From Candidatus Dojkabacteria bacterium (GTDB taxonomy: Bacteria > Patescibacteriota > Dojkabacteria > SC72): a stretch of DNA of 64,000 nucleotides. A program made the position numbers and the translations under genes. Numbering within the stretch: position 1 is the first letter of the stretch; every line of letters starts with the position of its first letter. Location of the stretch: assembly GCA_050950145.1 (NCBI GenBank), contig JBMNHB010000001.1, positions 300,458 through 364,457 of the forward strand, in the 5' to 3' direction. The notes beneath the pieces were generated by a model, which made no database searches, was not told the DNA's origin, and was given only the letters and a program-made list of their open reading frames with translations. Positions 4,820-63,632 of the stretch are shown one piece after another.

Positions 4820-6583
4820 ATGGTAATATTGCATATGATCAATATTGATATGACTGCACCAAGGCAGAAACCAAGAGAAACAGTTGTAAGAAGACATACT
4901 GTTTCTAGAAATGGTTCTATGCAGAAGCAGAAAGGTAAAATAAAGGTTTTTAGGTTAATTCTTCTCTCTTTTCTTTTTTCAGCACTGTTTCTATTTTTTG
5001 AAAATAGGGATAATTTTCTTTATGCGGTAAGGTATCTATTTAATATAGGAAGAAGTGCAGTTGTATACGATACATATACAATATCTTTTGAAGATGATGT
5101 CCCTGAGGAATTTAAAAATTTGATGGTAGAAAATTTAAGTAAGGTGGTGTTTAATGAAAAACCTAGGTTTAAGTTTAAAGATGGTAGAAGTGATTTAGTG
5201 ATAGGGATGGAGGAGAAAGAAGGTAGCAAGGTGGTGTTTAGTCAGGACTTTATTCCAGTGGGGCATATGTATTCTCTTACAACAAACTTAACAGATGATG
5301 ATATTAAGAGTAAGAATCTGTACATGATTGATGGTAGATTGAAGGAGCAGATTCAGAGTCAGATTGATGCAGATATCACTGTGTTAGATGGGGGAATTGA
5401 TAGTTTGGTAGCTAAACTAAAAGAGAGTGATGATAATATTGGTTTATTGTCTTTTGATTCTTTGGATTACAGAGTTAAGATAATACCTTTTAATGAAAAG
5501 TATTACTTAGATGATCAGGAAGGCGCTGTTAAGTTTAGATTTTACTCTTCCGTAAAGCCAGAAGATGAATTAATTATCTCAATTATCGGTATCCATATGG
5601 GTTTTGGTGGTAGTGGTGTTATGCAAAAAAGTTTGTTGACAAAATTGAATATGGGAGGTGTTGTTGCTATTGCAAGGAATTTAGCATTTAAGATGGAAGC
5701 TGCAAAAGAAAATGATTATGCTGCTAAGTATATAGGGGATTTTTTGGCAGATGCTGATCTTACACATGTATCTAATGAGGTTTCTTTTGTACCTGGTTGT
5801 ACTCCAACAAGAAGTATGGCTTTTTGTTCTAATCCTAAATATATTGAGACTTTAAAGAAGAGTGGTGTGGATATTGTTGAGTTAACAGGTAATCATAATA
5901 ATGACTATGGAGCTAAGTATAGTGCGAGTACAATAGAGACATATAAAGAATTGGGTTGGGATTATTTTGGTGGTGGACTTGATTTAGAAGATGCAAGAAA
6001 GATTTTGTATAAGGAGGTAAATGGTACTAAGATAGCATTTCTTGGCTATAACTATTACGATAGTATATTAAATAATCCAGGGCCATTAGCTGGAACTAAT
6101 AAATCTGGAGCGAATCCTTACAGTGAGGAGAAACTTAAGAGGGATATAGAAGAGGCTAAGAAGAATGCAGATGTTGTAATTACAAGTTTTCAATTTCAAG
6201 AGTGTTACTGTTATCCTGATGGTGATGTTATTTTTCCTCCTTGTTATAAACCTGTTGCTGTTCCTGATCAAAGAGGTACATTTAAGAAAGCTATTGATCT
6301 AGGAGCAGATATTGTAGTAGGTACTCAGGCGCATCAACCTCAGACATATGAGTTGTATAAAGATGGGGTTATATTCTATGGTTTAGGCAATCTCTTCTTT
6401 GATCAATATATTTGGATAGGAACCAGACAGGGTCTTGTGCTTACACATTATTTCTATGAAGGTAAGTATATTCAAACGAAAGTAGTTCCCATATATATGG
6501 ATAAGGATTTTAGAGTAAGGCTTGCAACTAAAGAACAGGGTGATTTACTATTGAAATTATTAAAGGATGCTAGAGATAAGTAA
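4820..6583 (+). CDS. CapA/PgsA-family metallophosphatase-like capsule (poly-gamma-glutamate) biosynthesis protein with long N-terminal membrane-anchored extension
   Basis: The C-terminal 300 aa carry the PGA_cap pattern ('GNHNNDYG', 'DVVITSFQFQE', 'GADIVVGTQAHQPQ', 'GLGNLFFDQ'). The N-terminal ~290 aa are unassigned and contain a TM helix. Confidence 0.65.
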   Translation: MVILHMINIDMTAPRQKPRETVVRRHTVSRNGSMQKQKGKIKVFRLILLSFLFSALFLFFENRDNFLYAVRYLFNIGRSAVVYDTYTISFEDDVPEEFKNLMVENLSKVVFNEKPRFKFKDGRSDLVIGMEEKEGSKVVFSQDFIPVGHMYSLTTNLTDDDIKSKNLYMIDGRLKEQIQSQIDADITVLDGGIDSLVAKLKESDDNIGLLSFDSLDYRVKIIPFNEKYYLDDQEGAVKFRFYSSVKPEDELIISIIGIHMGFGGSGVMQKSLLTKLNMGGVVAIARNLAFKMEAAKENDYAAKYIGDFLADADLTHVSNEVSFVPGCTPTRSMAFCSNPKYIETLKKSGVDIVELTGNHNNDYGAKYSASTIETYKELGWDYFGGGLDLEDARKILYKEVNGTKIAFLGYNYYDSILNNPGPLAGTNKSGANPYSEEKLKRDIEEAKKNADVVITSFQFQECYCYPDGDVIFPPCYKPVAVPDQRGTFKKAIDLGADIVVGTQAHQPQTYELYKDGVIFYGLGNLFFDQYIWIGTRQGLVLTHYFYEGKYIQTKVVPIYMDKDFRVRLATKEQGDLLLKLLKDARDK

Positions 6584-6584
6584 G

Positions 6585-9194: not shown

Positions 9195-9231
9195 TATTAC
9201 ATAATATCAAATATATTTCTTGAATAGTAAT

Positions 9232-11382
9232 CTATTGTATTACCTTTATAAATATTCCATTCTGATTTCCGATTTTTAGCTCTTCTCCATATATTTCATT
9301 TTTATCATTCTTTATTGTATATTCAAAAAGACTTTTACTATCTTGCCACTGTCCTATCTGTTTTATCTTATTAAACTCTAGATTTTTTAATATTTCATAT
9401 GATGTATATCCTTTGTTATCAAACAGATAGGAAGGAACTAGATTCCATCCTGACAACTTTGATATATCCAGACTTGCTCCTCTATAGCCAATTAAATTAA
9501 ACTCTGCTCCTTGTAGCGATATAACCATATATGATTTGTTTGAATCTAATTCAAAATCATTGCCATATATTTTTCCATCTTGATACTTTACAACTTGAAT
9601 CCATTCTCCTGATTTGTATTCTCCAACAGCAATAGCTCTTTTATCTGACATATTGATTAAATCGTATGCTGTTTTAGGATGTAGTGTCTGAGTAGTATCT
9701 AATACTTCTACTGGATTAATGAAGCTAACCCCCTTCTTAAGTTGATATTTAGCATTTGTGTTCTTACAATTTGTAATTGGAATATCTTCTCTAAGTACTC
9801 CATTACAATCGGATGGCATTTTTACGGAGAGTTTATTATCTTCAAAACAACATATTTTTTCTGTTTTTATGATTTTTTTATCTACAGTACATGTATATCC
9901 ATGTTCAGCTTCTAATCTAGTTTTGTAATTATTTCCTTCTTTATCGTAGAGACATATACAACCATCATGATCTGCACAATATCTATCTTTATCAGTCACG
10001 ACCATTTCGTCTTTAATACCATCTCCTCCAGAAGGTATTGGTTTATCTGGGTCTGTTGGAGTGGAGTCTGTTGATTCTCCTGAGCATGTTCTATACTTTC
10101 TGTTTTGAGTTTCTTTAGATCTATCACATGAGTTTGCATTAGGTGGAATTCTCCATGGCCATTTGGGTAATTCTTTACCAGTCATCTGATAAAACATCCA
10201 CTCTAAGTATCCAATATACTCAACTCCAGCACCTATTCCATCGTTATCTTCTGTACATACATATCCTTTCCAGTATTTTGTTGCCCATATATGTTCTGGA
10301 CTATATTTTTTCTTAAGTATATCTATTTCTTGGTCTGATTTTTCACCTCTTCTTCTGCAAGCTTCCTCAAACCAATCATCTGCATATGACTCTATAGCAA
10401 CATTTTTAAGAAAATAATTAATTTGTGTAGTAAAATCATTCTTCCATTCTGCTACATGGATTCCAAAGTCTTCAACTACAGGGAATTGTGCATACATGCT
10501 AGCAGCAGATTCGTGCATCCAAACAGTTAATGATATTGCAGGATTAAGTCCAGCGTTTATTGATTTACAATAAGCATCAGCATAACATTCTCTTAAATAG
10601 TCTCCTTTACAATATGAAAAACGTTCTCCTTCTGTAAGTGCTAATGATTGTTCTAAGGTAGGTAGGTATCTAGTATCCTTTATTACAACATTCGTCATAC
10701 AATTAGCTCCTGTAGCTGCATACACATTGTTTTTTAGTGCAGTATTTAATTTTCTCTTTAATTCAAATTTTGGAATATATTGTGCATATTTAATTTCTTT
10801 GTAGGTTTTACCTTTTAAATCTAGTGCCCAGTTTCTGTTTTTGTTAGCAAAAACCATATACTTCTCTCCTTCGGCATCAATTAGAATAAAGTCACCAGGG
10901 TCAGAGCTTCCTGTTTCTATCTGTGGTAGTTTAACTTGTTCATTAATATTTTTAGTTATAAAAGTAAGATTATAATCCCATATGTGTTGTGGAGAATTAA
11001 TTCTAAATGTATATTCTGTATTCGGTTTTAGATTTGATATTGTTGATTTGTATAAGTCTTCTTCATCGGAAATATTTGTGTATATTCTAAAATCATTCTC
11101 ATACTTGTATGGAGCTGTACTTTCTTTTTCTTTGTATGTTAGAACTTCAATATTTTTAGTTTTGGTTTTCCAATATACTTCTGCTTGATTGGTTGAGATA
11201 TTAGCAACTATTATGTCATAGGGTTTTTCTTCTAAAATTTGAAATGTTTTTCTGTTTTGAACTATTAGATAAATATTAGCAATTACTAATAAAAGACCAA
11301 GGAGAAAGAAGTATATAATATTTTTTGATTTTCTAGTTTTTTTCATTTCTCTATGATACCAAATATATATTATCTTGTGCAC
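9232..11382 (-). CDS. Large secreted multidomain protein, tandem paralog of 6585..9194 (variable N-terminal and lysozyme-like domain, near-identical C-terminal domain)
   Basis: N-terminal TM. 'ISLTVWMHESAASMYA...DFGIH' lysozyme/GH73-like signature. C-terminal 240 aa near-identical to 6585..9194 at DNA level. The true start may be the internal Met (MKKTRK...). Confidence 0.6.
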   Translation of the reverse strand: MHKIIYIWYHREMKKTRKSKNIIYFFLLGLLLVIANIYLIVQNRKTFQILEEKPYDIIVANISTNQAEVYWKTKTKNIEVLTYKEKESTAPYKYENDFRIYTNISDEEDLYKSTISNLKPNTEYTFRINSPQHIWDYNLTFITKNINEQVKLPQIETGSSDPGDFILIDAEGEKYMVFANKNRNWALDLKGKTYKEIKYAQYIPKFELKRKLNTALKNNVYAATGANCMTNVVIKDTRYLPTLEQSLALTEGERFSYCKGDYLRECYADAYCKSINAGLNPAISLTVWMHESAASMYAQFPVVEDFGIHVAEWKNDFTTQINYFLKNVAIESYADDWFEEACRRRGEKSDQEIDILKKKYSPEHIWATKYWKGYVCTEDNDGIGAGVEYIGYLEWMFYQMTGKELPKWPWRIPPNANSCDRSKETQNRKYRTCSGESTDSTPTDPDKPIPSGGDGIKDEMVVTDKDRYCADHDGCICLYDKEGNNYKTRLEAEHGYTCTVDKKIIKTEKICCFEDNKLSVKMPSDCNGVLREDIPITNCKNTNAKYQLKKGVSFINPVEVLDTTQTLHPKTAYDLINMSDKRAIAVGEYKSGEWIQVVKYQDGKIYGNDFELDSNKSYMVISLQGAEFNLIGYRGASLDISKLSGWNLVPSYLFDNKGYTSYEILKNLEFNKIKQIGQWQDSKSLFEYTIKNDKNEIYGEELKIGNQNGIFIKVIQ
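9249..9963. repeat. Copy 2 of the ~716-bp near-identical direct repeat
   Basis: See 6601..7316. Offset between copies ~2648 bp. Confidence 0.85.
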
Positions 11383-17985: not shown

Positions 17986-19638
17986 ATGTCAAATGGAAAA
18001 CAAGAAGAAAATACAGGAATGAGTGGGTTTAACAATGTGCTTGATGTTAGACGATTTGTTACTTTAATTGTTTTGGATGGTTTTGGTGTATTTCCTGATG
18101 CTGAGGGAAATGCAGTATGGGCAGCTAAAACTCCCTTTCTAGACACAATATGGACACATGGGAGATCTACTCTTATACATGCAGCAGGTACTCATGTAGG
18201 TTTGCCAGGAGAAGACGCAGGTAATTCTGAGGTAGGACATTTGAATTTAGGTGCAGGTCAGGTGGTATATCAAACACTTCCTAGGATTAATGATGCAATT
18301 AGTGCTCATGAGTTGGATAATAATCCGGTTATTAAGCAGATGTTTTCATATCTTAGGAAAAGTAGAGGTAAACTTCATCTTACAGGAGTACTTAGTCCAG
18401 CAGGTGTACATGGACATATTAAACACCTTTTCTCTTTATTAGATCTCTGCGCTGTTAGTGGTATAGATCCATATATACATGTGATGTTGGATGGTAGAGA
18501 TACTCCTCCCAAAGAGGGACATCTGTATGTAGAGAAATTACAGGCAAAGATTAAGGAAATAGGGAAGGGTAAAATAGCTTCAATAATGGGTAGGTTTTAT
18601 GGTATGGATAGAGATAGTAGGTGGGAAAGAACCAAACTTGCATATGATGCAATGGTTGGTCTCTCTGAGGATACTTTTACTGATCCAGTAGAGGTTGTAC
18701 AGAGGGCTTACAATAAAGGAGAAGATGATCAGTTCTTCAAGCCACGGGTTTGTGTAGATGAAAACTTGAGACCAGTTGGTGCTGTTCAGAATAACGATGC
18801 TATACTTTTCTGGAATTTTAGAGAGGATAGGGCAAGGCAGTTGACAAAGGCTTTTGTCCTTAAAGATTTTCCTCACTTTGTAAGAAGAAATTTCCCAGAG
18901 AAACTATATTTTGCAACTATGACTGGTTATGAAGAGAATCTTCCAGCTAACGTTGTATTTCCACCTTTAAGGATTAAAAAATCTTTGTCGGAGTATCTGT
19001 CAGACAATGGTAAGAAACAGATTCATCTTTCAGAAACAGAGAAATATATGCATGTGACATACTTCTTTAATGGTGGTATTGAACAACCACATGAAGGAGA
19101 AACTTTCTTTAATATTCCATCAAAGAGAGTGGACAACTATGCCTCAGTCCCAGAAATGAGTGCATTAGTTATTACAGAAGAAACGATGAATAGGATAGCA
19201 AATATTGAAAAAAATCCTCTTGACTTTATTCTCCTTAACTTTGCAAATCCAGATATGTTAGGTCATACAGGTAATTTTAGAGCAACCATTAAGGGGAATG
19301 AAATAGTTGATGAGTGTTGTGCAAAGATAGGCAAGGCTACGATAGATGCAGGTGGTTGTTTAATTGTAACAGCAGATCATGGGAACTGCGAGACTATGAT
19401 TAATAGGGCAACAAAAGAGATAGATATTGCACATACTAATAATCCAGTTCCACTAGTCGTTGCAAACAGTTTGAATGAAATAACTCCTCATCAAGGTGTA
19501 CCACAGTTAAAGATTGGAACAGGTCCAAAAGCAAGGGCAACAGGAATTCTTGCAGATGTTGCTCCTACCGTATTAGGTCTTCTAGGGATGGATATTCCAT
19601 CAAGTATGACTGGGATAGACCTAAGGTCTGTTCTATAG
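17986..19638 (+). CDS. gpmI: 2,3-bisphosphoglycerate-independent phosphoglycerate mutase, copy 1
   Basis: 'LIVLDGFG', catalytic-Ser context 'NSEVGHLNLGAG', 'HLTGVLSPAGVHGHIKH', C-terminal 'ADHGNCE'. Confidence 0.85.
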   Translation: MSNGKQEENTGMSGFNNVLDVRRFVTLIVLDGFGVFPDAEGNAVWAAKTPFLDTIWTHGRSTLIHAAGTHVGLPGEDAGNSEVGHLNLGAGQVVYQTLPRINDAISAHELDNNPVIKQMFSYLRKSRGKLHLTGVLSPAGVHGHIKHLFSLLDLCAVSGIDPYIHVMLDGRDTPPKEGHLYVEKLQAKIKEIGKGKIASIMGRFYGMDRDSRWERTKLAYDAMVGLSEDTFTDPVEVVQRAYNKGEDDQFFKPRVCVDENLRPVGAVQNNDAILFWNFREDRARQLTKAFVLKDFPHFVRRNFPEKLYFATMTGYEENLPANVVFPPLRIKKSLSEYLSDNGKKQIHLSETEKYMHVTYFFNGGIEQPHEGETFFNIPSKRVDNYASVPEMSALVITEETMNRIANIEKNPLDFILLNFANPDMLGHTGNFRATIKGNEIVDECCAKIGKATIDAGGCLIVTADHGNCETMINRATKEIDIAHTNNPVPLVVANSLNEITPHQGVPQLKIGTGPKARATGILADVAPTVLGLLGMDIPSSMTGIDLRSVL

Positions 19639-24487: not shown

Positions 24488-24765
24488 AAAATCTCTCCTT
24501 TGCAAGGACAAGTTTTATTTATACTTCCAAATTATGATTTTTGAATATCTTTACTGATTGTCTTTGCAAAATCCTCGTACCTATTTGTATATTAGGTGAT
24601 TAGTACCTTCAATAATATGGATTTTAGCATTAGAGATGTTGTTTTTTAAATAATGTATAGTTTATCATAGATAACTTACATAACATATAAAATCCTCTTT
24701 CATTTACAAAACAATCTAATATGTGTATATTGAATAGTCATACTTAATATTAGGATTATTCAAAT

Positions 24766-46676: not shown

Positions 46677-47075
46677 TTACTTTCCAAACAACTGTTTTTT
46701 TACTTCCTCCCTATCTTTTTCTGTTAATATTTCAATACTACTTATCTGTTTTTCTTTAGAACTTTCAAAAATCTTCATAATTTCATTCGGATTATCATCA
46801 CCTGCTATCCTATTTGTACTTACAGCTCCACATTTTTCACATCTGTGGACAATCATAATTTCTCCAACTTTTTCGTTCCCATATTTATCAACTTTTCTCT
46901 TTTTAAATGTAAGTCCAATAGGAATCATCTTCCCTTGACACTTTGATTTCCTATCTCCAGGAATATTCTCATCTAAATGTTGTGAAAGAAGACAAAAAGG
47001 GCAGTGATTTCTGTTCTTTGTTCCGATATATCCATTCTCTTTAACTTCTTTTTTACAATTGAAACACTTAAACAT
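46677..47075 (-). CDS. RNHCP-domain zinc-ribbon protein
   Basis: 'CFNCKKEV...NRNHCPFC...HRCEKCG' matches the RNHCP domain. Overlaps the upstream helicase gene by 8 nt. Confidence 0.5.
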   Translation of the reverse strand: MFKCFNCKKEVKENGYIGTKNRNHCPFCLLSQHLDENIPGDRKSKCQGKMIPIGLTFKKRKVDKYGNEKVGEIMIVHRCEKCGAVSTNRIAGDDNPNEIMKIFESSKEKQISSIEILTEKDREEVKKQLFGK

Positions 47076-49317
47076 TAAATTTTTTTGAGAAATTATCTCC
47101 TTCTTTTGTTATTACACACAATCTATGAAGAGCCCTTGTAATAGCAACATAGAGAAGTTTTATTGAAAGTAAATCATCTTTGTAATAATCAGAATTAGCA
47201 TCAGCAATTATTACCGAATCAAATTCTAATCCTTTAGCATTTTCAATAGGTAATATTAACAATCCTGTTCTATAATCATTCTCACTGTAGTTTACAACAT
47301 CTCTGTTGATTTCATCTTCATATGGCTTAAAAATCTCATATAGTTCTCTTGCGTGTTCTCTATTTCTTGCTAAAAGTGCACAGGTAACAGACCCTTTTTC
47401 AAAATATTCCTTTATCATCTCAATAATCTCTTTTACATCATTTTTATCCATATTCACAATGTCTTTATCTTTTTGCATAATTCTTACTTCTTCACCATGT
47501 CTTAGTACTGCTTCTGGTAAATCATATGATTTTGGAAAGTATTCTTTAAATATTTTGTTTGCAAACTCTACAATTTCAACAGTAGTTCTGTAACATTTCT
47601 GTAGCTGATGATATGATGTATCCTTTTTTGTATTCTCTTTTACAACTTCAAAAACTTCATTCCATGACTTAATGTAAAAAGGAGGAATTATTGATTGCGC
47701 AAGGTCTCCAGCTATTGTCATATTCCCATTCTTTGCAATTTTGGAGAGTGTAGCAAGTTGTACAAAACTCATATCTTGAGCCTCATCAATCATTATGTAA
47801 GCTCTCTCATACAATTTACTACCATATACTTTTAAGTGTAGGTATACCATAGGAGCTAGATCTTCAATTCTGTATGTACGAATTCTTCCACTATGTTTTA
47901 TCCCTTCAAGTGTATATTTAGAAATATCTTTTGAAATATATTTAGATTTAAAAAGGTTTTTGTAAAGCTGGTATATATTAGTTTCTCTCCTAAAGTATGC
48001 AAGAATCTTAGCTTTTATCTCCTCAGTGTTTTCTGTTCTAAGCTTAATATCTCCTTCTTTATACTTGTTGAATTTTTTTTGAGCAAAAGCATATTCTGTT
48101 GCTAGTGACACTCTCTCTATCATATCAATATCACTATACTCTTCTTTGAGTTGATGATATCTATCAGCTATCACTTCTGCCATGCTGCTTGGAATATTTT
48201 CTAGTAGATTCTCTTCAAAATCGTGGAAGTATTTATCTAAAATTTTGATAAACTCTCTAGAACCTTTAAATTCTTTGAATTCTAAATTTTCTTCTTCTGT
48301 AGAAACTGTGTAGTAGTCATCCCATTCTAGAATTTTCTTTGCCCAGAAAAGATATGTTAGCGTTTCAACCTTTCTTACCCCTAAGTTAGGTAAAACATCA
48401 GACACATAATCTATGAACATTTGGTTAGGGGCTATGATTAAGGAATTTGTTTCGTTGATTCTCTTTGGGTATGTGTAGAAGAGATATGCCAATCTGTGTA
48501 AGAGAATTGTAGTCTTCCCACTACCAGCAACTCCTTGTATAACAACAGGGAAATTAATATCTTCTCGTATAATATTGTTTTGTTGAGCTTGAATTGTTGC
48601 AACAATATCTTGTAGCTTTTTACCGATTCTTTCTTGAAGTTGTACTAAGAGAAATTCGTCAGCAGCAACATTTCCAGATTTAGCATCATATATTCCTCTT
48701 ATTCTTGCTCTTGATATTTGGAATTGTCTTTTTTGAATTAACTCTCCTTTTCTTTCTCCAATAGGGGCAATAAATGAAACATTTTTCTTAGGTCCAGAGT
48801 TTTGATAGTAAATATTAGCAATAGGGGATCTCCAGTCTGTAATTAGAGGTAAATGTGTATCTGCTTCTACCATTGCAAATTTGCCGATATATAGGTTGAG
48901 TGGTATTTTAGTTCTAGAATCGTCTGGTAAGAAAGAAATTTTTCCAAAATATGGAGAGTCAAGTGCCAAAAGCTGATTGTTAATTCTTTCAACAGTTATC
49001 TCTATTTGAGCAAGAATTTTATTATAAATACTTCTAGCAGCTTTCCTTTCGTCGGCATCACTCTCTGCTTCTATTTCTGCTATCTGTCTTTCAAGTTCTT
49101 CTTCTAATCTTTTGAGGTTAGGTAATAGGAAATCTAATCTTTCTTTTGTAAGAAGAGAGACTTTTTGTAAATGTGGGTATTCCTCTTCTTCTAAGGAGTT
49201 TTCGTATACTATCTTGCTGAAATCTACTACCTCCTCTATATCCTTGTATAGAGGGTTTAGATGTTTCTCAAAGGTTTGCATTTCGTTTTTGGCAGAAATT
49301 ACCCGCTCAGTATACAA
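47068..49317 (-). CDS. UvrD/HelD-like superfamily 1 DNA helicase with N-terminal coiled-coil domain
   Basis: Walker A 'GVAGSGKTTILLHRLAYL', 'IMIDEAQD' motif II, C-terminal 'LLYVAITRALHRL' motif VI. ~200-aa coiled-coil N-terminus as in HelD-type helicases. Confidence 0.8.
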   Translation of the reverse strand: MYTERVISAKNEMQTFEKHLNPLYKDIEEVVDFSKIVYENSLEEEEYPHLQKVSLLTKERLDFLLPNLKRLEEELERQIAEIEAESDADERKAARSIYNKILAQIEITVERINNQLLALDSPYFGKISFLPDDSRTKIPLNLYIGKFAMVEADTHLPLITDWRSPIANIYYQNSGPKKNVSFIAPIGERKGELIQKRQFQISRARIRGIYDAKSGNVAADEFLLVQLQERIGKKLQDIVATIQAQQNNIIREDINFPVVIQGVAGSGKTTILLHRLAYLFYTYPKRINETNSLIIAPNQMFIDYVSDVLPNLGVRKVETLTYLFWAKKILEWDDYYTVSTEEENLEFKEFKGSREFIKILDKYFHDFEENLLENIPSSMAEVIADRYHQLKEEYSDIDMIERVSLATEYAFAQKKFNKYKEGDIKLRTENTEEIKAKILAYFRRETNIYQLYKNLFKSKYISKDISKYTLEGIKHSGRIRTYRIEDLAPMVYLHLKVYGSKLYERAYIMIDEAQDMSFVQLATLSKIAKNGNMTIAGDLAQSIIPPFYIKSWNEVFEVVKENTKKDTSYHQLQKCYRTTVEIVEFANKIFKEYFPKSYDLPEAVLRHGEEVRIMQKDKDIVNMDKNDVKEIIEMIKEYFEKGSVTCALLARNREHARELYEIFKPYEDEINRDVVNYSENDYRTGLLILPIENAKGLEFDSVIIADANSDYYKDDLLSIKLLYVAITRALHRLCVITKEGDNFSKKFNV

Positions 49318-49347: not shown

Positions 49348-49550
49348 AGGTCTGGCCTAGGTCTGCCCCATGTTAATCTATATTTAATCATCTATATTCC
49401 TTTCTTATATAAGTCTTTTTTGATAAAAATCTTTTTATTTTGTAAGAATTTTGGTCTAGGGAGACATAGGATATTGTAATTACTTAGTAGTAGGAGACCT
49501 TTTGGGTGGATTAAAAAGTTATGAATCAGGGGCAGACCTAGGCCAGGCCT
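49348..49550. mobile_element. MITE-like GC-rich element with ~22-bp terminal inverted repeats (copy 1)
   Basis: Left end aggtctggcctaggtctgccccatgttaa. Right end aaaagttatgaatcaggggcagacctaggccaggcct, which is its reverse complement at 19/20. AT-rich ~140-bp interior. Second copy at 61932..62137. Confidence 0.6.
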
Positions 49551-49575
49551 GGTGTGGTTGTGGTATGATGTAAAT

Positions 49576-50136
49576 ATGAGTGGACAGTTGAAATTTCTTT
49601 TGACTTTGGTTGTACTTGTTGGCCTCTTTCTCTTTTTACAAGAGAAGTTTAGTTTTTTGGATATCTCAATCACAGAAAATTCTTCTAAGGTAGAAGAACA
49701 GAAAGAAAATAATTCAAAGAAGGAAAGTAGTGAAGAAAAAAAAGACTATGTAGATATATATATGGAAGAAGGTAAGAGTGTAAAAGTTAATGTAGAAGTT
49801 GCTAATACTGAGATAGAAAGAAGGAATGGTCTCTCAAATAGACAATATCTAGGAGATTATGATGGAATGTGGTTTATCTTTGATGAAGATGTAAAGAATT
49901 CTTTTTGGATGAAAGATATGCTAATTCCTTTAGATATTATTTTTGTTGATTCTAGTGGTTTTATTGTGGATATAAAGGAGAATAATGCTTCTTGTACTGA
50001 TTCATATTGTCCCAACATAATTTCATCAACAAGTTATAGATATGTACTTGAAGTTAATGGAAATTTTTGTCAGGAGAATGGTGTAGAAGTAGGTCATAGT
50101 ATAACCGCACACATTAGTTCAGATAATCCTGTATAA
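49576..50136 (+). CDS. DUF192 (COG1430) secreted protein
   Basis: 'DYDGMWFIFDEDVKNSFWMKDMLIPLDIIFVDSSGFIV...YVLEVNGNF' matches DUF192. ATG at 49576 preferred over the track GTG at 49552, which lies inside the repeat element. Confidence 0.55.
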   Translation: MSGQLKFLLTLVVLVGLFLFLQEKFSFLDISITENSSKVEEQKENNSKKESSEEKKDYVDIYMEEGKSVKVNVEVANTEIERRNGLSNRQYLGDYDGMWFIFDEDVKNSFWMKDMLIPLDIIFVDSSGFIVDIKENNASCTDSYCPNIISSTSYRYVLEVNGNFCQENGVEVGHSITAHISSDNPV

Positions 50137-50144
50137 TAGTAGCT

Positions 50145-50804
50145 ATGATTAATTCATTAATAGATTGGTTAGTAAATTTAATTAACTCTGTTGGATATTG
50201 GGGTGTTGGTTTAGCAATGTTTATTGAAAGTTTTTTTGCTCCCATACCAAGTGAAATAATCCTTCCTTTTTCTGGTTTTGTAGCATCTCAAGGTACATTG
50301 AATATTGTTTTAGTGATAATAATCGCTACTTTTTCTGCATATCTTGGTTCCCTTCCTTTCTATTTAGTAGGTAGATGGGGAGAAAAGTCAGTAATGAAAT
50401 TTCTGAATAAATATGGGAAATATCTCTTTATATCTAAAACAGATCTGAATAAAGGATTTACTGCTTTTGAAAAGTATGGAAATGGAATTGTTTTACTTGG
50501 AAGAGTTATTCCAATTGTTCGTACAGTTATTTCTTTTCCTGCAGGTGTTGCAAAGATGAACTTCTTTGTTTTTTCTATGTATACACTAGTAGGTACTGCT
50601 ATTTGGTCAACCATACTAGCTCTTGCAGGATACTTTTTAGGTTCTAAATGGGAAATTGTTTCAGAATATGTTGCTAAGTATGAAAAAATTATATTAATAA
50701 TTTTAATACTAGTAGCTGTTTGGTATGTTGCTAGAGGTATTATTAATATGAGAAAAGATTCAACTAAACTAAAGGCAAAAGACTCTTCCCAGTCATCTCA
50801 CTAG
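50145..50804 (+). CDS. DedA/TVP38 family membrane protein, copy 2
   Basis: 'GYWGVGLAMFIESFFAPIPSEIILPFSGF' and 'LLGRVIPIVRTVISFPAGVAKMN' DedA motifs. Confidence 0.7.
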   Translation: MINSLIDWLVNLINSVGYWGVGLAMFIESFFAPIPSEIILPFSGFVASQGTLNIVLVIIIATFSAYLGSLPFYLVGRWGEKSVMKFLNKYGKYLFISKTDLNKGFTAFEKYGNGIVLLGRVIPIVRTVISFPAGVAKMNFFVFSMYTLVGTAIWSTILALAGYFLGSKWEIVSEYVAKYEKIILIILILVAVWYVARGIINMRKDSTKLKAKDSSQSSH

Positions 50805-52293
50805 GTTTACTAATTCCCATTATCTGCAGTATTGTTGGTGCAATATCTCTTAATGCTCCGTATGGAAGAAGTTGTGGTTTGTAATCACTTCCTACGATTA
50901 TAAATGGAACAGGGTTTATTGAATGTTCAGTATCCATACTACCATCATCAACATTTAACATCTCTTCTACATTCCCATGATCTGCTGTTATCACAACAAC
51001 ACCACCCAATGCAGTAAAACTATTTACTAATTCTTTGACACAGAAATCAACAATCTTAACTGCCTTAATTCCTGCTTCTAGGTTCCCAGTGTGTCCAACC
51101 ATGTCAGCATTTGCAAAATTAGCAACAATCAAATCATATGTTCGTCTCTGTATCCTATCAAGCAATATTGTTGTAATCTCTAATGCACTCATTTCTGGTT
51201 TTTGATCATATGTAGTAACCTTTGGAGAAGGAATAATAATACGATCTTCTTTATTATAGATAACGGGTGTTCCTCCGTTAAAGAAATATGTAACATGAGG
51301 GAATTTTTCTGTTTCTGCAATTCTTAACTGAGTTCTTTCTTCTGCATCAATAACATTACCAAGTGTAAGATTAATATATTGTTTTGGGAAAATAATTTTT
51401 TCAGGGAAGTTTTTCCTATATTCCACCATACTTGCAACAAAAAGATTAGGTATTTTTTTTCTAAAAAAACCAGTGAAATTATCAGAAATTAATGCCTCAG
51501 TTAATTGAATCATCCTATCTGATCTGAAATTCATTAAAATCACAACATCATTTTCTTTTATATTGCTCTTATTAATGACAGCAGGTTCTATAAACTCATC
51601 TGTTATGTTTTGTGAATAATTATGTTGTATAGCTGTATGACAATTGGGAAATTCTGCCCCCAAATTCTTTTCAAGAAGATAGTATGCTCTTTCAGTTCTG
51701 TCCCACTTATTATTCCTATCCATACCATAGAATCTACCGATGATAGTACCAATTTGACCCATCCCTCTATCCATACAATATTTATCAATATCAGCAAGGT
51801 AAGAAGCTGCTGCATTTACTGCAGTATCCCTTCCATCTGTAAATACATGAATAAATACTCTATTTGGGAAATTATATTTAGAGAAAAAGTCAATTACTGC
51901 TTTGAAATGATCAATATGAGAATGTACAGCACCATCACTAAGAAGACCTACAAGGTGAATATCTCCTCCATATTTGTGAGCATGAGCAAAAGCTTCCTTT
52001 AGTGTATTGTTTTGATAGATTAAACCTTTTTCAATTGAATTGTTTATTCTAGGTAGATTTTGGCTTACAGTTCTGCCTGCTCCAATGTTTAAATGACCCA
52101 CCTCACTATTACCTTTAATATTTTTTGGTAAACCGACATGTTCTCCTGAAGCGATTAAGTAGGTTCGTGGAGATGAGCTCCAAAGAGAGACAAGGGTTGT
52201 AGGATTGGCCTGTACAACAGCATTTCCAGGGCTAAGAGGTGCAGCTCCTAAACCATCTAAAATTAGTAACAAAACTTTCTTCTTTTTACTCAT
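50764..52293 (-). CDS. gpmI: 2,3-bisphosphoglycerate-independent phosphoglycerate mutase, divergent copy 2
   Basis: 'LILDGLG', 'NSEVGHLNIGAG', 'HLVGLLSDGAVHSHIDH', 'ADHGNVEEM'. About 45% identity to copy 1 by eye. Confidence 0.85.
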   Translation of the reverse strand: MSKKKKVLLLILDGLGAAPLSPGNAVVQANPTTLVSLWSSSPRTYLIASGEHVGLPKNIKGNSEVGHLNIGAGRTVSQNLPRINNSIEKGLIYQNNTLKEAFAHAHKYGGDIHLVGLLSDGAVHSHIDHFKAVIDFFSKYNFPNRVFIHVFTDGRDTAVNAAASYLADIDKYCMDRGMGQIGTIIGRFYGMDRNNKWDRTERAYYLLEKNLGAEFPNCHTAIQHNYSQNITDEFIEPAVINKSNIKENDVVILMNFRSDRMIQLTEALISDNFTGFFRKKIPNLFVASMVEYRKNFPEKIIFPKQYINLTLGNVIDAEERTQLRIAETEKFPHVTYFFNGGTPVIYNKEDRIIIPSPKVTTYDQKPEMSALEITTILLDRIQRRTYDLIVANFANADMVGHTGNLEAGIKAVKIVDFCVKELVNSFTALGGVVVITADHGNVEEMLNVDDGSMDTEHSINPVPFIIVGSDYKPQLLPYGALRDIAPTILQIMGISKPSEMTGKSLLPLV

Positions 52294-58523: not shown

Positions 58524-61500
58524 ATGTTCACTCATTTACATTTACATACAGAGTATTCCTTACTGGATGCAACTATACGAATTTCTGATCTAATAGAGAA
58601 GCTTAAGGCTAATAACATGAATGCGTGTGCGATTACAGATCATGGAAATATGTATGGGGCATATAAGTTTCAGAGCGCAATGAAAGCTGAAGGATTAAAA
58701 CCAATAATAGGTTGTGAGATATATATTGCACCAAGAAGTATGGAAGACAAAGAATATGGCATAGATAATAACTATTTTCACTTAGTTCTCTTAGCTAAAA
58801 ACTTAGAAGGTTACAAAAACCTTGTGAAAATTGTTTCTATAGCCCATATGGATGGTTTCTACTATAGACCTAGGATTGATATTGAAACATTAAAAAAACA
58901 CACAGGAGGATTAATTGCACTCTCAGCTTGTCTTGCTGGTCCAGTAGCTCAGCCTCTTTTGAATAATGATTACAAAAAAGCCAAGGAGAATGCAGAACTA
59001 TATTCAAAACTTTTCAAAGATAATTTCTACATTGAGATTCAAAGGAATGGAATGGAAGAACAGAACTTGGTTAATGAGGGTCTTATTAAGATAGCAAAAG
59101 AATTAGATCTTCCACTAGTAGCAACTTGTGATTCCCATTACCTAAATAGAGAGGATGCTGAAATACAAGAGATTCTATGGTGTATTTCAGATGGTACAAC
59201 AATGGATGATCCAAATAGAAGGAGAATGCCCACAAACGAATTCTATGTAAAAACTCCAGAACAGATGCAAGAACTCTTTAGTGATTTACCTGAGGCAGTT
59301 GAAAACACACAAAAAATAGCTGACTCAGTAGAAGAGTATGATATTACATTTGAAAGAGTTGAGACAAAGTTTTTAGATTTACCTAAAGGTGAGACAGCTC
59401 GGTCATACTTAAAGAAATTGACATATGAAGGTGCTAAGAAGAAGTATGGTGAAATAACAAAGGAGTTGAAAGAAAGGATTGATTATGAATTATCTTTGAT
59501 ACATGAGAAAGGTTACGACGATTACTTTTTGGTAGTTAGAGACTTTGTCCATTTTTGTCACGAAAACGACATTATTGTTGGTATGAGAGGCTCAGGTTGT
59601 GGTTCTGTTGTTGCCTATGCAACAGACATTACAAATATAGAACCAATTAAATGGGAACTGTACTTTGAAAGATTTCTTAACCCTGAGCGACCAAGTCCCC
59701 CTGATTTTGATATTGATATAGCAGATCAGAGAAGAGATGAAGTTATACAATACACAATTGATAAATACGGTATAGATAATGTAAAACAGATAGGAACCTT
59801 TAGCAAACTACAAACAAGACAAGCTATTAGGGATGTTGCAAGAGTTATAGGGATTGACTTAAAAACAGCTGATGCTCTATCAAAAATGGTTGAAATAGTT
59901 TTTGGTAAATCAAAAGGTATTGACTATATGATCGAGAAGAATCCTGAATTTGCAGAAATAATTAATTCTTCAGAAGAAACAAAGCATCTTGCAAACATTG
60001 TTAGAAAAATTTCAGGCCTTTGTAGAGGGATATCTACACATGCATGTGGAATTATCATTACTCCTACACCAGTTATTGAATATTGCCCAATACAAAGAGA
60101 TGCGCACGGAGGAGGTATTGGAATGACTCAGTACGAAATGTTTGATATAGAACCTCTTGGATTAATGAAATATGACTTTCTTGGTTTAAGAAACCTCCAT
60201 GTTATTGGAGCAGCACTTAAAAAGGTTGAAAGAAGTACCGGAGAGAAAATAGATTTAAGAGAAATAGACTATGAAGATCCAAAAGTCTTTGACTTAATTA
60301 AGTCTGGACATACTGTTGGGTTATTCCAAATGGAGAGTGAAGGAATGAAAAGAACAATTAGAACTCTTCAACCAGAGAACTTGGAGGATATCTGCTATAT
60401 TCTAGCTGCCTACAGACCAGGTCCAATGCAGTACATTACTGAATATCAGGCAGTAAAAACAGGCAAACAAGAACCAGATTACATATTTGATGAACTTGAA
60501 CCAGTTCTCTCAGTTACCAGAGGAGTTATTACATACCAAGAGCAGGTAATGAGAATAGCACAGATAATTGCAGGATACTCTCTAGGAAAAGCAGATGTCT
60601 TAAGAAGAGCAATGGGAAAAAAGATAGTTGAAGTTATGGAGAAAGAGAAACCGACCTTTGTAGAAGGAGCTATAAAGAACGGCTATGATAAGGAAAAAGT
60701 GGAGAAACTCTGGGATAAATTGCTTCAGTTTGCAAACTATGGCTTTAACAAAGCACATAGTGCATCATATGCAACAATAGCATATTGGACTGCATATCTT
60801 AAAACACACTACCCTTTGGAATATATGGCAGCTCTTTTAGAAGGAGATTTAGATAAGTTTGATAGGATAATACTTGATCTAAAAGAATGTAAAAGATTAG
60901 GAATTAATGTCCTCCCACCAGATATTAACAAGAGTGGATATTACTTTACATCTGATGATAACAACAGTATATGGTTTGGACTTGGTGGGATAAAGAATAT
61001 CGGTGGTGATCTTGTTAAATTAATAATCAAAGAGAGAGAAGAGAATGGTGAGTATCAGAACTTGGATGATTTTGTACACCGTGTATATGAAGATGTTGGT
61101 AAGAAAGCGATGGAGTATCTAATAATGGCAGGGACAATGGATTCTTTTGGAGATAGGTTAGATCTGTTAAAAACTTTTCCAACAGTTTATCAGAAAGAGA
61201 AAGATGACAGGAAAGCTAGTAGTGTAGGACAATTTGACTTTTTTTCACTGGGTCAAACAGAAGAAGGACAGAATAGGACAATTGCAACTCCACTTGAAAA
61301 AGATACAGAAACTGATAGAAATGTTTTGCTACAGTGGGAAAAAGATCTTTTAGGTCTCTACTTTTCAAGTCATCCTCTTGATAATCTTCAAGAGCTTTTC
61401 ATAACAAAAAATGTGGTAACATTGGAGGATGCATTGGAGTATAAAAAGAATAATGAAATGTTGGTTCTTGGTGTTATGATTAATAAAGTAAGAAAGGTGA

Positions 61501-61922
61501 CTACAAAAAAAGGTGATATGATGGCATTTCTTTCAATAGAGGATAAGACTGCGAAAACCGATGCTATTGTATTCCCAAGAACCTACGAGGAATTGAAAGG
61601 TGTATTGAAGGAGAATGTTCCAGCTTTAATTGTTGGTAAGTTAAATGTTAGAAATGGAGAGAAGAGTATTGTTGTTGAGAAGTTAAAACCGATAGATCCG
61701 TCTAAACATAATAATATCTTTGAAGGTATTACATTTAAAATCTCACCAGAACACACAAAAGAACAAGTGTCAGATTTAAAAGGATATATAGCTAATTCTG
61801 AAGGAGATACACCTGTTAGGATTATGGTTAATGACAACGGAAAGAACAAGATTGTAGAACTAAAGAAGAAAATACCTTTGAATGATGAAACTAGACAATG
61901 GATGAATGTATTTAGTTTTTAG
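58524..61922 (+). CDS. dnaE: DNA polymerase III alpha subunit
   Basis: PHP domain 'FTHLHLHTEYSLLD', palm/fingers motifs, OB-fold C-terminus. Full length 1132 aa. Confidence 0.95.
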   Translation: MFTHLHLHTEYSLLDATIRISDLIEKLKANNMNACAITDHGNMYGAYKFQSAMKAEGLKPIIGCEIYIAPRSMEDKEYGIDNNYFHLVLLAKNLEGYKNLVKIVSIAHMDGFYYRPRIDIETLKKHTGGLIALSACLAGPVAQPLLNNDYKKAKENAELYSKLFKDNFYIEIQRNGMEEQNLVNEGLIKIAKELDLPLVATCDSHYLNREDAEIQEILWCISDGTTMDDPNRRRMPTNEFYVKTPEQMQELFSDLPEAVENTQKIADSVEEYDITFERVETKFLDLPKGETARSYLKKLTYEGAKKKYGEITKELKERIDYELSLIHEKGYDDYFLVVRDFVHFCHENDIIVGMRGSGCGSVVAYATDITNIEPIKWELYFERFLNPERPSPPDFDIDIADQRRDEVIQYTIDKYGIDNVKQIGTFSKLQTRQAIRDVARVIGIDLKTADALSKMVEIVFGKSKGIDYMIEKNPEFAEIINSSEETKHLANIVRKISGLCRGISTHACGIIITPTPVIEYCPIQRDAHGGGIGMTQYEMFDIEPLGLMKYDFLGLRNLHVIGAALKKVERSTGEKIDLREIDYEDPKVFDLIKSGHTVGLFQMESEGMKRTIRTLQPENLEDICYILAAYRPGPMQYITEYQAVKTGKQEPDYIFDELEPVLSVTRGVITYQEQVMRIAQIIAGYSLGKADVLRRAMGKKIVEVMEKEKPTFVEGAIKNGYDKEKVEKLWDKLLQFANYGFNKAHSASYATIAYWTAYLKTHYPLEYMAALLEGDLDKFDRIILDLKECKRLGINVLPPDINKSGYYFTSDDNNSIWFGLGGIKNIGGDLVKLIIKEREENGEYQNLDDFVHRVYEDVGKKAMEYLIMAGTMDSFGDRLDLLKTFPTVYQKEKDDRKASSVGQFDFFSLGQTEEGQNRTIATPLEKDTETDRNVLLQWEKDLLGLYFSSHPLDNLQELFITKNVVTLEDALEYKKNNEMLVLGVMINKVRKVTTKKGDMMAFLSIEDKTAKTDAIVFPRTYEELKGVLKENVPALIVGKLNVRNGEKSIVVEKLKPIDPSKHNNIFEGITFKISPEHTKEQVSDLKGYIANSEGDTPVRIMVNDNGKNKIVELKKKIPLNDETRQWMNVFSF

Positions 61923-61931
61923 ACATACAAC

Positions 61932-62137
61932 AGGTCTGACCTAGGTCTGCCCCATGTTAAGAAAATTTTAATCTCTAAGTTATGTACTTTCAAAAAGGTC
62001 TCCTAGTCCTCGGCTCAGGTAGTATGTACGTGTTACAAGTAAAAACAGAGGAACATGTACCCCAAAAAGGTATGTAAGAAGCAAAATTTCTCACATATTA
62101 AAAAGTTATGAATGAGGGGCAGGCCTAGGCCTGGCCT
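61932..62137. mobile_element. MITE-like GC-rich element with terminal inverted repeats (copy 2)
   Basis: Left end aggtctgacctaggtctgccccatgttaa. Right end aaaagttatgaatgaggggcaggcctaggcctggcct. Same TIRs and subterminal 'attaaaaagttatgaat' as copy 1. Interior diverged. Confidence 0.6.
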
Positions 62138-62153
62138 TGTAGTATAATTAGAC

Positions 62154-63632
62154 ATGAACATAAACCAAATAGACTTACTTCCTCTAAAGCCAGGAGTATA
62201 CAAATTCTATGACAAGAACAAAAAACTTTTGTATATAGGAAAAGCTCTTAATTTAAGAAACAGAATCAAATCATATTTTAATGACACACTCTATGACAGA
62301 CCGTATGTAAAGAAGATGATTCCTCTAATTGAAACAGTAGAAATAGTAGAAACAAATAATGAAATAGAATCGTTGGTATTGGAGGCAGCATTAATCAAAG
62401 AATTCAAACCTAAATATAATACTGATCTCAAAGACGACAAATCATATGCTTGGATATATGTATCTACAAAAGATGAATACCCTTTGATTAAAATAACAAG
62501 AAATGTATCAAGTAAGGAATTAAAAAAAGGAGAGCTCTTTGGTCCATATCCCAATATACACTCTGCCAGAAGAGTTTTCACATACCTTAGAAAACTCTAT
62601 CCTTTCTGTACATGCTCACCAGAAAGAGCAAAAAGAGAGAAAGAATGTATGTATTTTCATATTGGTCTTTGTCCAGGACCATATCAAGGACATATCACAA
62701 AAGAAGAATACAGAAGAAATATAACTGAAATACTTAAATTTCTTAAAGGTAGGAAACGAGGACAGATTGCTAAACTAGAATCTAAAATGAAACAATATTC
62801 TAAAGCAAAAGAATATGAAAAAGCTGGAGAATTAAGAGATAAAATTGAAGATCTTAAATACTTAGGAGAAAAGATAGATTTTGAGTATAACGAAAGTTCA
62901 GAATCTTATATAACAAGAAGGAAAAAACTACTACAATCTAATTTCCAAGAATTAAAAATAGAGTTAGGGTTGAAAAAACTAAACAGAATTGAATGCTATG
63001 ATATCTCTAATATACAAGGTAAAGAAGCGTATGGTTCAATGGTAGTTGCAGAAAAAGGAGAGATTAAAAGAAGTGAGTATAGGATTTTTAGAATAAAAAC
63101 TCTTGAGACTCCCAATGATACGCAGATGCTAAAAGAAGTCCTTTCTAGAAGATTTAATGAAAAGCAAAAAGAAAAATACAGTTCATATCCAGAGATTGTC
63201 CTAATAGACGGTGGTAAAGGACAACTATCTGTAGTAGAACCCTCTATTCCCAAAAATATCTATTTACTAGGTATTACAAAGGGAAGAAAATACAAAAGAA
63301 AAGGAGGCCATTTACTTGACGAATTTTGGTATATGAATAGAGGTAGTAAAAAGGTAGAGAAAATAAAGATTATCAATAAAGATGTACTAATAGATCTAAG
63401 AGATGAAGCGCATAGATTTGCTATTCTTCATCATAGAAAAGCAAGAGTTAGAGAGAGTAAAAAATCTGAATTAATTAAGATTAACGGAGTAGGAGAGAAG
63501 AGCAGGGTAAAACTTCTTAAAAACTTCAAATCGATTGAGAATATTAAAAAGGCTAATTTGGAAGATATTAATATGGTTTTGAACAATAAAAAGATAAGTA
63601 AGTTAGTTTACGAATATTTCAGAAAGAATTAA
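62154..63632 (+). CDS. uvrC: Excinuclease ABC subunit C
   Basis: GIY-YIG 'PGVYKFYDKNKKLLYIGKALNLRNRIKSYF', UvrBC domain, C-terminal RNase H-like and HhH regions. Confidence 0.9.
   Translation: MNINQIDLLPLKPGVYKFYDKNKKLLYIGKALNLRNRIKSYFNDTLYDRPYVKKMIPLIETVEIVETNNEIESLVLEAALIKEFKPKYNTDLKDDKSYAWIYVSTKDEYPLIKITRNVSSKELKKGELFGPYPNIHSARRVFTYLRKLYPFCTCSPERAKREKECMYFHIGLCPGPYQGHITKEEYRRNITEILKFLKGRKRGQIAKLESKMKQYSKAKEYEKAGELRDKIEDLKYLGEKIDFEYNESSESYITRRKKLLQSNFQELKIELGLKKLNRIECYDISNIQGKEAYGSMVVAEKGEIKRSEYRIFRIKTLETPNDTQMLKEVLSRRFNEKQKEKYSSYPEIVLIDGGKGQLSVVEPSIPKNIYLLGITKGRKYKRKGGHLLDEFWYMNRGSKKVEKIKIINKDVLIDLRDEAHRFAILHHRKARVRESKKSELIKINGVGEKSRVKLLKNFKSIENIKKANLEDINMVLNNKKISKLVYEYFRKN

Follow-up and report, generated by a model that had tools for sequence, protein, structure and literature searches.

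Two short intergenic elements with palindromic ends lie in the stretch of DNA analyzed here, 64,000 nucleotides of contig JBMNHB010000001.1 of a Candidatus Dojkabacteria bacterium (hereafter, the window), and both are adjacent to genes of genome maintenance. Copy 2 comprises 206 bases (61932-62137) in the spacer between the dnaE stop codon (61922) and the uvrC start codon (62154), where a preliminary description of the window had placed a second copy of the palindromic element. Copy 1 (49348-49550) adjoins the gene of a UvrD-like helicase, as that description had also claimed and as Pfam confirms. The locus raises the question of whether the element is a regulatory site shared by repair genes or a mobile element that came to lie beside them by coincidence. 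Our analysis makes it very probable that copy 2 is a non-autonomous, REPIN-like doublet of repetitive extragenic palindromes (REPs), from a family that is partnered in sister Dojkabacteria with a HUH/Y1 transposase of the REP-associated tyrosine transposase (RAYT) type. Its position beside repair genes is indistinguishable from chance.

A repeat family in Dojkabacteria

The core of each end, AGGTCTGRCCTAGGTCTGCCCC, is GC-rich and 22 nt long and forms an imperfect palindrome around CCTAGG; an alternative parsing gives two 11-nt direct half-sites, AGGTCTGnCCT and AGGTCTGCCCC. The 22-mer AGGYCWGRCCTAGGYCTGCCCC has four matches in the window (49348 and 61932 on the plus strand, 49550 and 62137 on the minus strand), which form two inverted pairs, against an expected count of 0.00 in 100 shuffles of the window. 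A search with GNCCTAGGNC found no extra site outside both elements, barring one unrelated intragenic match. The inverted ends that the two copies have in common extend over about 42 nt: the repeat finder aligned the left arms over 42 nt (86% identity) and the right arms over 44 nt (91% identity). Between the copies there is one substitution in the left 22-mer and there are two in the right one, and the subterminal ends are common as well, in agreement with the earlier statement that both copies carry the same terminal inverted repeats with one or two substitutions. The parts of the elements are listed below (MAG, metagenome-assembled genome; ORF, open reading frame).

61928..61931, plus strand: YAAC tag, a CAAC tetranucleotide 5' of the left repeat, recognized from the flank consensus
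61932..61953, plus strand: left REP, 22-nt imperfect palindrome AGGTCTGACCTAGGTCTGCCCC, with exact-pattern matches in Dojkabacteria MAGs and metagenomes
61954..61973, plus strand: left subterminal A/T-rich segment ATGTTAAGAAAATTTTAATC, conserved in 16 aligned elements and common to RAYT-bearing elements
61974..62096, plus strand: family A interior, non-coding; internal structure unsupported, no covariation, no match to the RAYT ORF
62097..62115, plus strand: right subterminal conserved segment ATTAAAAAGTTATGAATGA, from the repeat finder and the element alignment
62116..62137, minus strand: right REP, opposite in orientation to the left REP (minus strand: AGGCCAGGCCTAGGCCTGCCCC); the two REPs pair when folded as single-stranded DNA and as RNA
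49348..49550, plus strand: copy 1, same end-family with a family B interior, between the UvrD-like helicase and DUF192 genes

The CAAC at 61928..61931 either belongs to the element or reflects a target preference.

Only the ends, about 44 nt each, are common to copies 1 and 2. Their interiors of about 120 nt show 48% global identity, which equals the shuffle null (48.5 +/- 2.3), in either orientation. The possibility that the interior of copy 1 is an inverted interior of copy 2 was rejected, since the identity equals the null and a 13-nt motif alone is common, in inverted orientation. This motif, AAAAGGTCTCCTA, which has the look of a degenerate REP half, is the sole interior similarity; it is located near the left end of copy 2 (61993-62005, plus strand) and near the right end of copy 1 (49491-49503, inverted).

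We scanned one genome per GTDB species (596 Gb) with the pattern AGGNCNGNCCTAGGNCTGCCCC and obtained 38 loci. All low-GC loci belong to Candidatus Dojkabacteria MAGs or to MAGs labelled Saccharibacteria, and the high-GC matches (Streptomyces, Vicinamibacterales and others) were treated as chance, since a pattern with 18 fixed bases should match about 17 times in 596 Gb. A metagenome scan with a stricter left-end pattern yielded 40 further loci, all of them low-GC and from digester or fermentation samples, and a viral-contig collection scanned for the REP gave no matches. Automatic pairing of the ends identified 59 inverted pairs, seven more elements with a decayed partner end and one lone REP. 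About 65 elements occupy about 20 distinct intergenic sites in Dojkabacteria MAGs and digester metagenomes, and all of them lie between genes or overlap gene ends by at most 13 nt. They form two size classes with the same ends, non-coding units of 202-217 nt, the automatically paired ones measuring 202-209 nt, and transposase-bearing units of 539-557 nt; one metagenome contig of 75.5 kb (Ga0255347_1000458) carries one transposase unit and three short units (loci L050, L059, L062).

The sequence 5' of the ends is biased towards YAAC: in 62 distinct end-flanks, C is found at position -1 in 33, A at -2 in 37 and A at -3 in 40, with AAC in 16/62 and CAAC in 11/62 (background C = 15%). There is no target-site duplication beyond chance, as matches between the two flanks are equal to those of shuffled partners at boundary offsets 0-5.

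Long and short units match in their left ends over about 44 nt and in their right ends over about 41 nt, and nowhere else. The site between the RsmD-like and SpoU genes holds a transposase unit in UBA5232 (L030, also L058) and a short unit in the identical place in eight other contigs; the site between Fic and YbaB is occupied by a transposase unit in L072 and by a short one in L063; the site between MutS and a PPDK-like gene was seen only with a transposase unit (L018, L056, L059, L061). The short units have at least five unrelated interiors, namely family A (including copy 2), family B (including copy 1, whose orthologue L010 is 96% identical) and L024, L011 and L006, each of which stands apart, with L012/L033 being intermediate between families A and B. 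Within family A, three CAYPAR paralogues at different sites (L001, L004, L008) have interiors that are 88% identical, while the interior of L004 is 70% identical to that of its positional orthologue L034 in JAGPFQ. Similarly, the copy 2 interior is 74-77% identical to those of the same CAYPAR paralogues and 63% identical to that of its positional orthologue L027. Paralogous copies thus resemble each other more closely than positional orthologues do, as would be expected if the elements spread or convert inside a genome.

We then compared the divergence of the dnaE-uvrC copies of the window, L043 and L080 with that of the 4-fold sites of dnaE and uvrC. The 4-fold sites diverge by 0.24-0.35, the 22-nt REPs by 0-0.045, the subterminal 22 nt by 0-0.068 and the interior by 0.12-0.22. 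In the 88 end bases there are 2-5 substitutions versus 22-30 predicted by the 4-fold rate (P <= 5e-8), and the deficit in the interior has P values from 0.012 down to 1e-8. The deficit at the ends is so extreme that they must be actively maintained, be it through selection for recognition by the transposase, through conversion between copies or through a function for the host.

Several further observations concern the family as a whole. In a second set of MAGs (CAYOEG and others) the repeat occurs as single perfect or near-perfect 22-nt palindromes GGGGCAGACCTAGGTCTGCCCC, i.e. REP singlets (L017, 3075-3096 and 7016-7037; L020, 3667-3688; L028, 1276-1297 and 1793-1814; L032, L037, L019, L023, L002 and L038), and the transposase gene of L028 sits between two of them. 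Genes that run into the outer end of a REP stop inside it, with a TGA within AGGCCTGA and an overlap of 8 nt (L004, 2537-2544; L022, 1866-1873) or, for FtsH, of 13 nt (L067, 1945-1957); because SpoU-like, cytidylyltransferase-like and FtsH genes terminate in this way, the element supplies their stop codon and last residues. The family B element at 3168-3370 of L052 is flanked on the left as at the OYE-oxidoreductase site (compare L013) and on the right as at the DUF192 site (compare copy 1 and L010), and is either a recombination rearrangement between two copies or an assembly chimera (contig of 4.4 kb, coverage 2.6). Many contigs begin or end in or beside an element (L001, L039, L045, L049, L051, L057, L058, L064, L073, L074, L082), so the family is a frequent cause of assembly breaks and its copy numbers in MAGs are underestimated.

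The transposase of the long units

Each long unit contains a single ORF of 151-161 aa with the motif YCLMPNHFHL, and transposase units flanked by REPs in inverted orientation are found at L018, L030, L005, L028, L056, L058, L059, L061 and L072. The four ORFs from genome assemblies have 46-78% mutual identity. The ORF matches the Pfam family Y1_Tnp (IS200-like) with 35-43 bits (cut-off 23), and its sole specific NCBIfam match is NF047646, REP-associated tyrosine transposase. More than 5000 database proteins match it at E <= 1e-5; several bear the JGI name "REP element-mobilizing transposase RayT", others the NCBI name "transposase [Candidatus Dojkabacteria]".

The best PDB match of a profile of 58 homologues is 4ER8, the E. 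coli TnpA_REP (E = 3.4e-6, residues 2-146 against 2-139), followed by ISDra2 TnpA (E = 0.005), which is matched in the HUH region only. The 58-sequence profile was needed for this result, as PDB searches with the single protein and with a 4-sequence profile gave no match. In the profile alignment, H62/H64, Y123 and N127 of the L018 protein correspond to H59/H61, Y115 and N119 of 4ER8, which are the HUH histidines, the catalytic tyrosine and a metal ligand, respectively (PMC3479197), and these positions are invariant or nearly so over the 58 sequences. P0121, a protein with 97% identity to the L018 ORF, was modelled with AlphaFold2 (mean pLDDT 90.9); the top Foldseek match of the model in the PDB is 4ER8_A (TM 0.71, root-mean-square deviation 3.0 over 149 columns), with TM values of 0.49-0.58 for the IS608, ISDra2 and IS200 transposases. 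Both profile and model place the protein in the RAYT clade of HUH/Y1 enzymes, nearer to TnpA_REP than to IS200 TnpA.

Among the fetched loci there is one transposase unit per MAG (CAYPAR, JAGPFQ, DHUO, CAYOEG), a lower bound that covers exact REP-pattern loci only. In two of the four genes from genome assemblies, the stop codon of the transposase is the TAG of the CCTAGG centre of a REP (L030, 2819-2821; L028, 1285-1287), and the last residues, ..GQT, are encoded by the flanking REP.

By homology with E. coli TnpA_REP and the TnpA proteins of IS200/IS605, these features can be assembled into a putative mechanism. The unit is composed of two inverted 22-nt REPs, each with about 20 nt of subterminal sequence, around a non-coding interior of about 120 nt, and the transposase would be supplied in trans from elsewhere in the genome. 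On single-stranded DNA, the enzyme may recognize the hairpin of the REP together with the tetranucleotide beside it (here YAAC), and cutting and rejoining at these positions would move or copy doublets without target duplication. Copy 2 is an insertion into an otherwise very short dnaE-uvrC spacer, and uvrC retains its own promoter outside it. Catalysis by this protein, the single-stranded route and current mobility of the family are all presumed.

Insertion sites, the uvrC promoter and the repair genes

The genes and the promoter box that surround the two copies, with the domains found by Pfam, are:

58524..61922, plus strand: dnaE, DNA polymerase III alpha (DNA_pol3_alpha, PHP, finger, HHH_6)
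62143..62148, plus strand: TATAAT, -10 box of uvrC, outside the element, 5 nt to the ATG at 62154, a leaderless-type spacing
62154..63632, plus strand: uvrC (GIY-YIG, UVR, UvrC_RNaseH_dom)
47068-49317, minus strand: UvrD-like helicase (Pfam)
ATG at 49576: DUF192 gene, adjoining copy 1 (Pfam)

The dnaE stop codon is 9 nt 5' of copy 2 and the uvrC ATG is 16 nt 3' of it. The preliminary description had the element ending 16 nt before the TATAAT box; in fact this is the distance to the ATG, and the box begins 5 nt past the end of copy 2. A promoter scan gave no plus-strand match within copy 2, the sole match inside being a minus-strand consensus (61993-61965).

The occupancy of the dnaE-uvrC spacer was determined in fetched contigs encoding UvrC relatives. 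The element is carried by the clade of the window (L043 and L080, UvrC 93-96% identical) and by the UBA5232 clade (L027 and L066, UvrC 74% identical). It is absent from L041, whose UvrC is 76% identical to that of the window and 79-81% identical to that of L027 and where 30 nt separate the dnaE stop codon from the uvrC ATG; from L040 and L042, which have another gene between dnaE and uvrC; and from L039 (94% identical), which has a different gene upstream of uvrC. A TATAAT box is situated 5-6 nt before the ATG in all uvrC relatives examined, with or without the element, and the four relatives without it (L039-L042) have TG one base 5' of the box (TGnTATAAT). Since relatives without the element have an equivalent -10 box, the uvrC promoter is outside the element and independent of it, and copy 2 has been inserted into the few bases that separate the stop codon of dnaE from the -10 box of uvrC.

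TATAAT-like boxes 5-6 nt before an ATG, often as TGnTATAAT, occur at 62143-62156 and 49561-49578 of the window and in L040 (about 2483-2503), L041 (2490-2503) and L042 (2488-2503); a Shine-Dalgarno sequence would not fit in front of such genes. An equivalent layout of the -10 box is seen at the RsmD-like, RarA and PolA starts in related loci. This suggests that genes of this lineage commonly have extended -10 promoters and leaderless mRNAs.

Clustering of the flanking ORFs gave about 20 insertion sites, whose neighbours, annotated with Pfam and ARAGORN, are:

UvrD-like helicase and DUF192
DnaE and UvrC
RsmD-like and SpoU
TrxR-like and cytidylyltransferase, convergent 3' ends
peptidase M50 and an unknown protein
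RarA and methyltransferase
MutS and PPDK-like
CDP-alcohol transferase and EF-Tu
tRNA-Arg and tRNA-Arg
IF-2 and RuBisCO large subunit
OYE-type oxidoreductase, second neighbour unassigned
Fic and YbaB
MazG and YbaB
DsbA-like and an unknown protein
FtsH and Flg_new
an unknown protein and PolA
SerRS and SocA
RNase J and LeuRS-type synthetase
two more sites with unannotated neighbours

At the tRNA-Arg site (anticodons gcg and tcg; L036, 6488-6692; L068, 2357-2561; L081, 6153-6357) the element begins 2 nt from the end of one tRNA.

The background rate for such neighbours was taken from the window, where 54 of 65 ORFs are annotated, four of them as replication or repair genes (DnaE, UvrC, UvrD-like helicase, RNase HII), and where seven of about 65 spacers touch such a gene, i.e. 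0.108 per site. In the window alone both sites do so (P = 0.012), which is why the adjacency caught the eye. At this rate, the five of 20 sites flanked by a replication or repair gene have P = 0.057, and the enrichment near repair genes that the preliminary description had proposed to look for by tabulating neighbours is not borne out once the two discovery sites are set aside (3/18, P = 0.31), although 18 sites give little power against a mild bias.

The most tempting alternative is that the ends are a shared cis-regulatory site, with a protein bound to the CCTAGG-centred palindrome at the -35 position and exerting damage control over uvrC, the UvrD-like gene, rarA, mutS and polA; the preliminary description had similarly thought of a damage operator, an attenuator or a terminator. 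The start codons of UvrC, the UvrD-like helicase, RarA, MutS and PolA do come 1-30 nt after an end of the element, the five of 20 sites are more than the background rate predicts, and at orthologous loci the ends are far more conserved than 4-fold sites. Yet outside the discovery sites the excess is no more than chance allows (P = 0.31), and the other neighbours are as diverse as EF-Tu, IF-2, RuBisCO, tRNA-Arg, FtsH, SerRS, Fic and YbaB, with some elements located between convergent 3' ends (TrxR-like and cytidylyltransferase). The distance from the element to the downstream ATG is as short for RsmD-like (14 nt) and Flg_new (14 nt) as for UvrC (16 nt), RarA (17 nt) and PolA (19 nt), and this gap of 14-19 nt is not tied to one gene class, because leaderless-type promoters are general in these genomes. 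Moreover, the kind of uvrC promoter is unchanged in relatives without the element, the same ends also flank a transposase gene, and scans for a terminator and for Rfam families were negative (see below). We therefore regard damage control as very improbable. A broader version, in which selection at the host level keeps the REP ends as cis elements, namely insulators or stand-ins for a -35 box with a modest bias towards genome maintenance (uvrC, uvrD-like, rarA, mutS, polA), is drawn from the slow divergence of the ends, and even of the interior, relative to 4-fold sites and from the positions of the ends, which come 0-9 nt past stop codons and precede the -10 boxes of leaderless-type genes by 3-13 nt in a genome with hardly any intergenic DNA; it is decidedly unlikely, if less so than damage control.

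An effect on the host at the RNA level would be compatible with a REPIN-like doublet. E. coli REPs protect mRNA 3' ends, impede terminating ribosomes and insulate from read-through. Here the element, if transcribed as the 3' untranslated region of dnaE with its REPs paired in a long stem, could protect the 3' end of the dnaE mRNA, hinder ribosomes terminating at the stop codon 9 nt 5' of it or shield uvrC from read-through. When 61915-62153 is folded as RNA (-66.4 kcal/mol, z = -3.4), the terminal arms are paired, the whole element is more conserved than 4-fold sites, and elements begin 0-9 nt past upstream stop codons or overlap them. However, a scan of 61700-62400 found no terminator-like site and no T-tract terminator, no covariation preserves the pairing, and copy 2 as single-stranded DNA has z = -1.9 only, with paired arms and a weak remainder, so that such an effect is unlikely. 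A structured non-coding RNA gene or a riboswitch-like leader of uvrC is far less probable still, and we give it hardly any weight. The stretch is conserved and intergenic and its RNA fold is below the shuffles, but 61880-62200 has no Rfam match at E <= 1 (in the whole window, tRNAs alone pass the gathering thresholds), the terminal stem is all that RNAalifold supports in 11 family A copies, without compensatory pairs, and the same ends enclose at least five unrelated interiors; nor is the element in the uvrC leader, as the -10 box lies downstream of it, 5 nt from the ATG. The preliminary description had also considered a miniature inverted-repeat transposable element (MITE) accumulating in permissive spacers. 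A mobile element with coincidental neighbours is indeed supported, and the terminal inverted repeats (about 42 nt), the length (about 200 nt) and the occurrence of several copies in intergenic positions would suit a classical MITE, i.e. an internal-deletion derivative of an insertion sequence with a DDE transposase, moved via its terminal inverted repeats. It is nevertheless extremely improbable that the element is of this kind: target-site duplications are absent at every boundary offset, the one protein seen between these ends is a transposase of the Y1/HUH and not of the DDE type, and the interior is unlike that of the long element.

Certain observations weigh against the identification of copy 2 as a REP doublet with a RAYT partner. 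The transposase scores 36-42 bits with NF047646, below the curated cut-off of 80. The 64-kb window contains no transposase gene, and for this reason its presence elsewhere in this genome is presumed from the close relative CAYPAR. The short units did not arise from the long ones by deletion, since the two match at their ends alone, even at the orthologous RsmD-like/SpoU site. The REPs are about 185 nt apart, which is longer than in classical REPINs (in Pseudomonas GI doublets, 71 bp separate the invariant 16-mers; PMC3116915), and the tag is YAAC, analogous in position to GTAG or CGTC and different in sequence. In the 11 family A copies the stem has no compensatory changes, and the interior is not a continuous hairpin. 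The element diverges less than 4-fold sites, which is not expected of a purely selfish, decaying insertion. Finally, the evidence for excision and insertion is indirect (likeness of paralogues, patchy occupancy, no target duplication).

Other features of the window and comparison with known systems

A 300-nt direct repeat with 96% identity (6579-6878 and 9226-9525) lies at the 3' termini of two large neighbouring ORFs on the minus strand, 6585-9194 (869 aa) and 9232-11382 (716 aa), neither of which matches Pfam; these are probably tandem paralogues with a homogenised C-terminal region. Two paralogous genes of cofactor-independent phosphoglycerate mutase in opposite orientation (17986-19638, plus strand; 50764-52293, minus strand) explain why the repeat scan reported the long inverted repeats I1, I3 and I8. 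The 278-nt spacer 24488-24765, which contains no ORF of at least 70 aa, no tRNA and no Rfam match, is the largest non-RNA intergenic gap besides the two elements in a window that is 94% coding.

Full-text searches of the literature retrieved no account of REPIN/RAYT populations in Patescibacteria, even though databases label the protein family RayT; the sole paper retrieved with both "REP-associated tyrosine transposase" and "candidate phyla radiation" concerns an archaeal locus. The tempting and unsupported idea of a damage operator in an organism that may lack LexA is thus replaced with the testable identity of a REP doublet with a RAYT partner in an ultra-small Patescibacteria genome. Long modular doublets, the YAAC tag, units that share sites and ends conserved beyond synonymous sites make the family a compact case for the question of replicator versus host-useful persistence. 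In practice, the elements break metagenome assemblies, and rearrangements may occur via them.

Classical MITEs (Correia, RUP and ERIC-type elements) resemble the family in their length of about 200 nt, terminal inverted repeats and intergenic location, and they too may abut promoters or stop codons and may be co-transcribed; they differ from it in that the elements described here have no target-site duplication, no DDE partner and no interior derived from an autonomous unit. With IS200/IS605 and their PATE derivatives the family shares the Y1 HUH fold and motifs, imperfect hairpins with an adjacent guide or target tetranucleotide, the lack of target duplication and the presence of short non-coding derivatives. 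The ends of IS200/IS605, however, are asymmetric subterminal hairpins, in contrast to the long terminal inverted repeats found here, no tnpB is present, and the protein is nearer to 4ER8 (TM 0.71 versus 0.49-0.58; profile E 3e-6 versus 5e-3).

The closest counterpart is the REP/REPIN-RAYT system, represented by the REPs and BIMEs of E. coli with TnpA_REP and by the REPINs of Pseudomonas fluorescens. Compared with these, the host is a member of Patescibacteria with a coding density of about 94% in the window; the REPs enclose, at their distance of about 185 nt, a non-hairpin interior of about 120 nt in at least five unrelated versions; the tag is YAAC and not GTAG (E. coli REPs) or CGTC; the copy number is low (two in this 64-kb window, one transposase unit and three short units on one 75.5-kb contig); the transposase unit occupies three sites in relatives, two of which hold a short unit in other genomes; and the Dojkabacteria protein is under the NCBIfam RAYT cut-off. 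Because spacer, tag, copy number, site sharing and NF047646 score depart in this way, the family is not a strict member of the E. coli or Pseudomonas families. What it has in common with them is a short GC-rich imperfect palindrome that is repeated and extragenic, inverted doublets with pairing arms, a HUH/Y1 transposase of the RAYT clade inside the same inverted repeats (among the loci fetched, each assembly has one such unit), a tetranucleotide that is conserved on the 5' side of the foot of the hairpin, the absence of target duplication, and long persistence at orthologous sites together with homogeneity within a genome.

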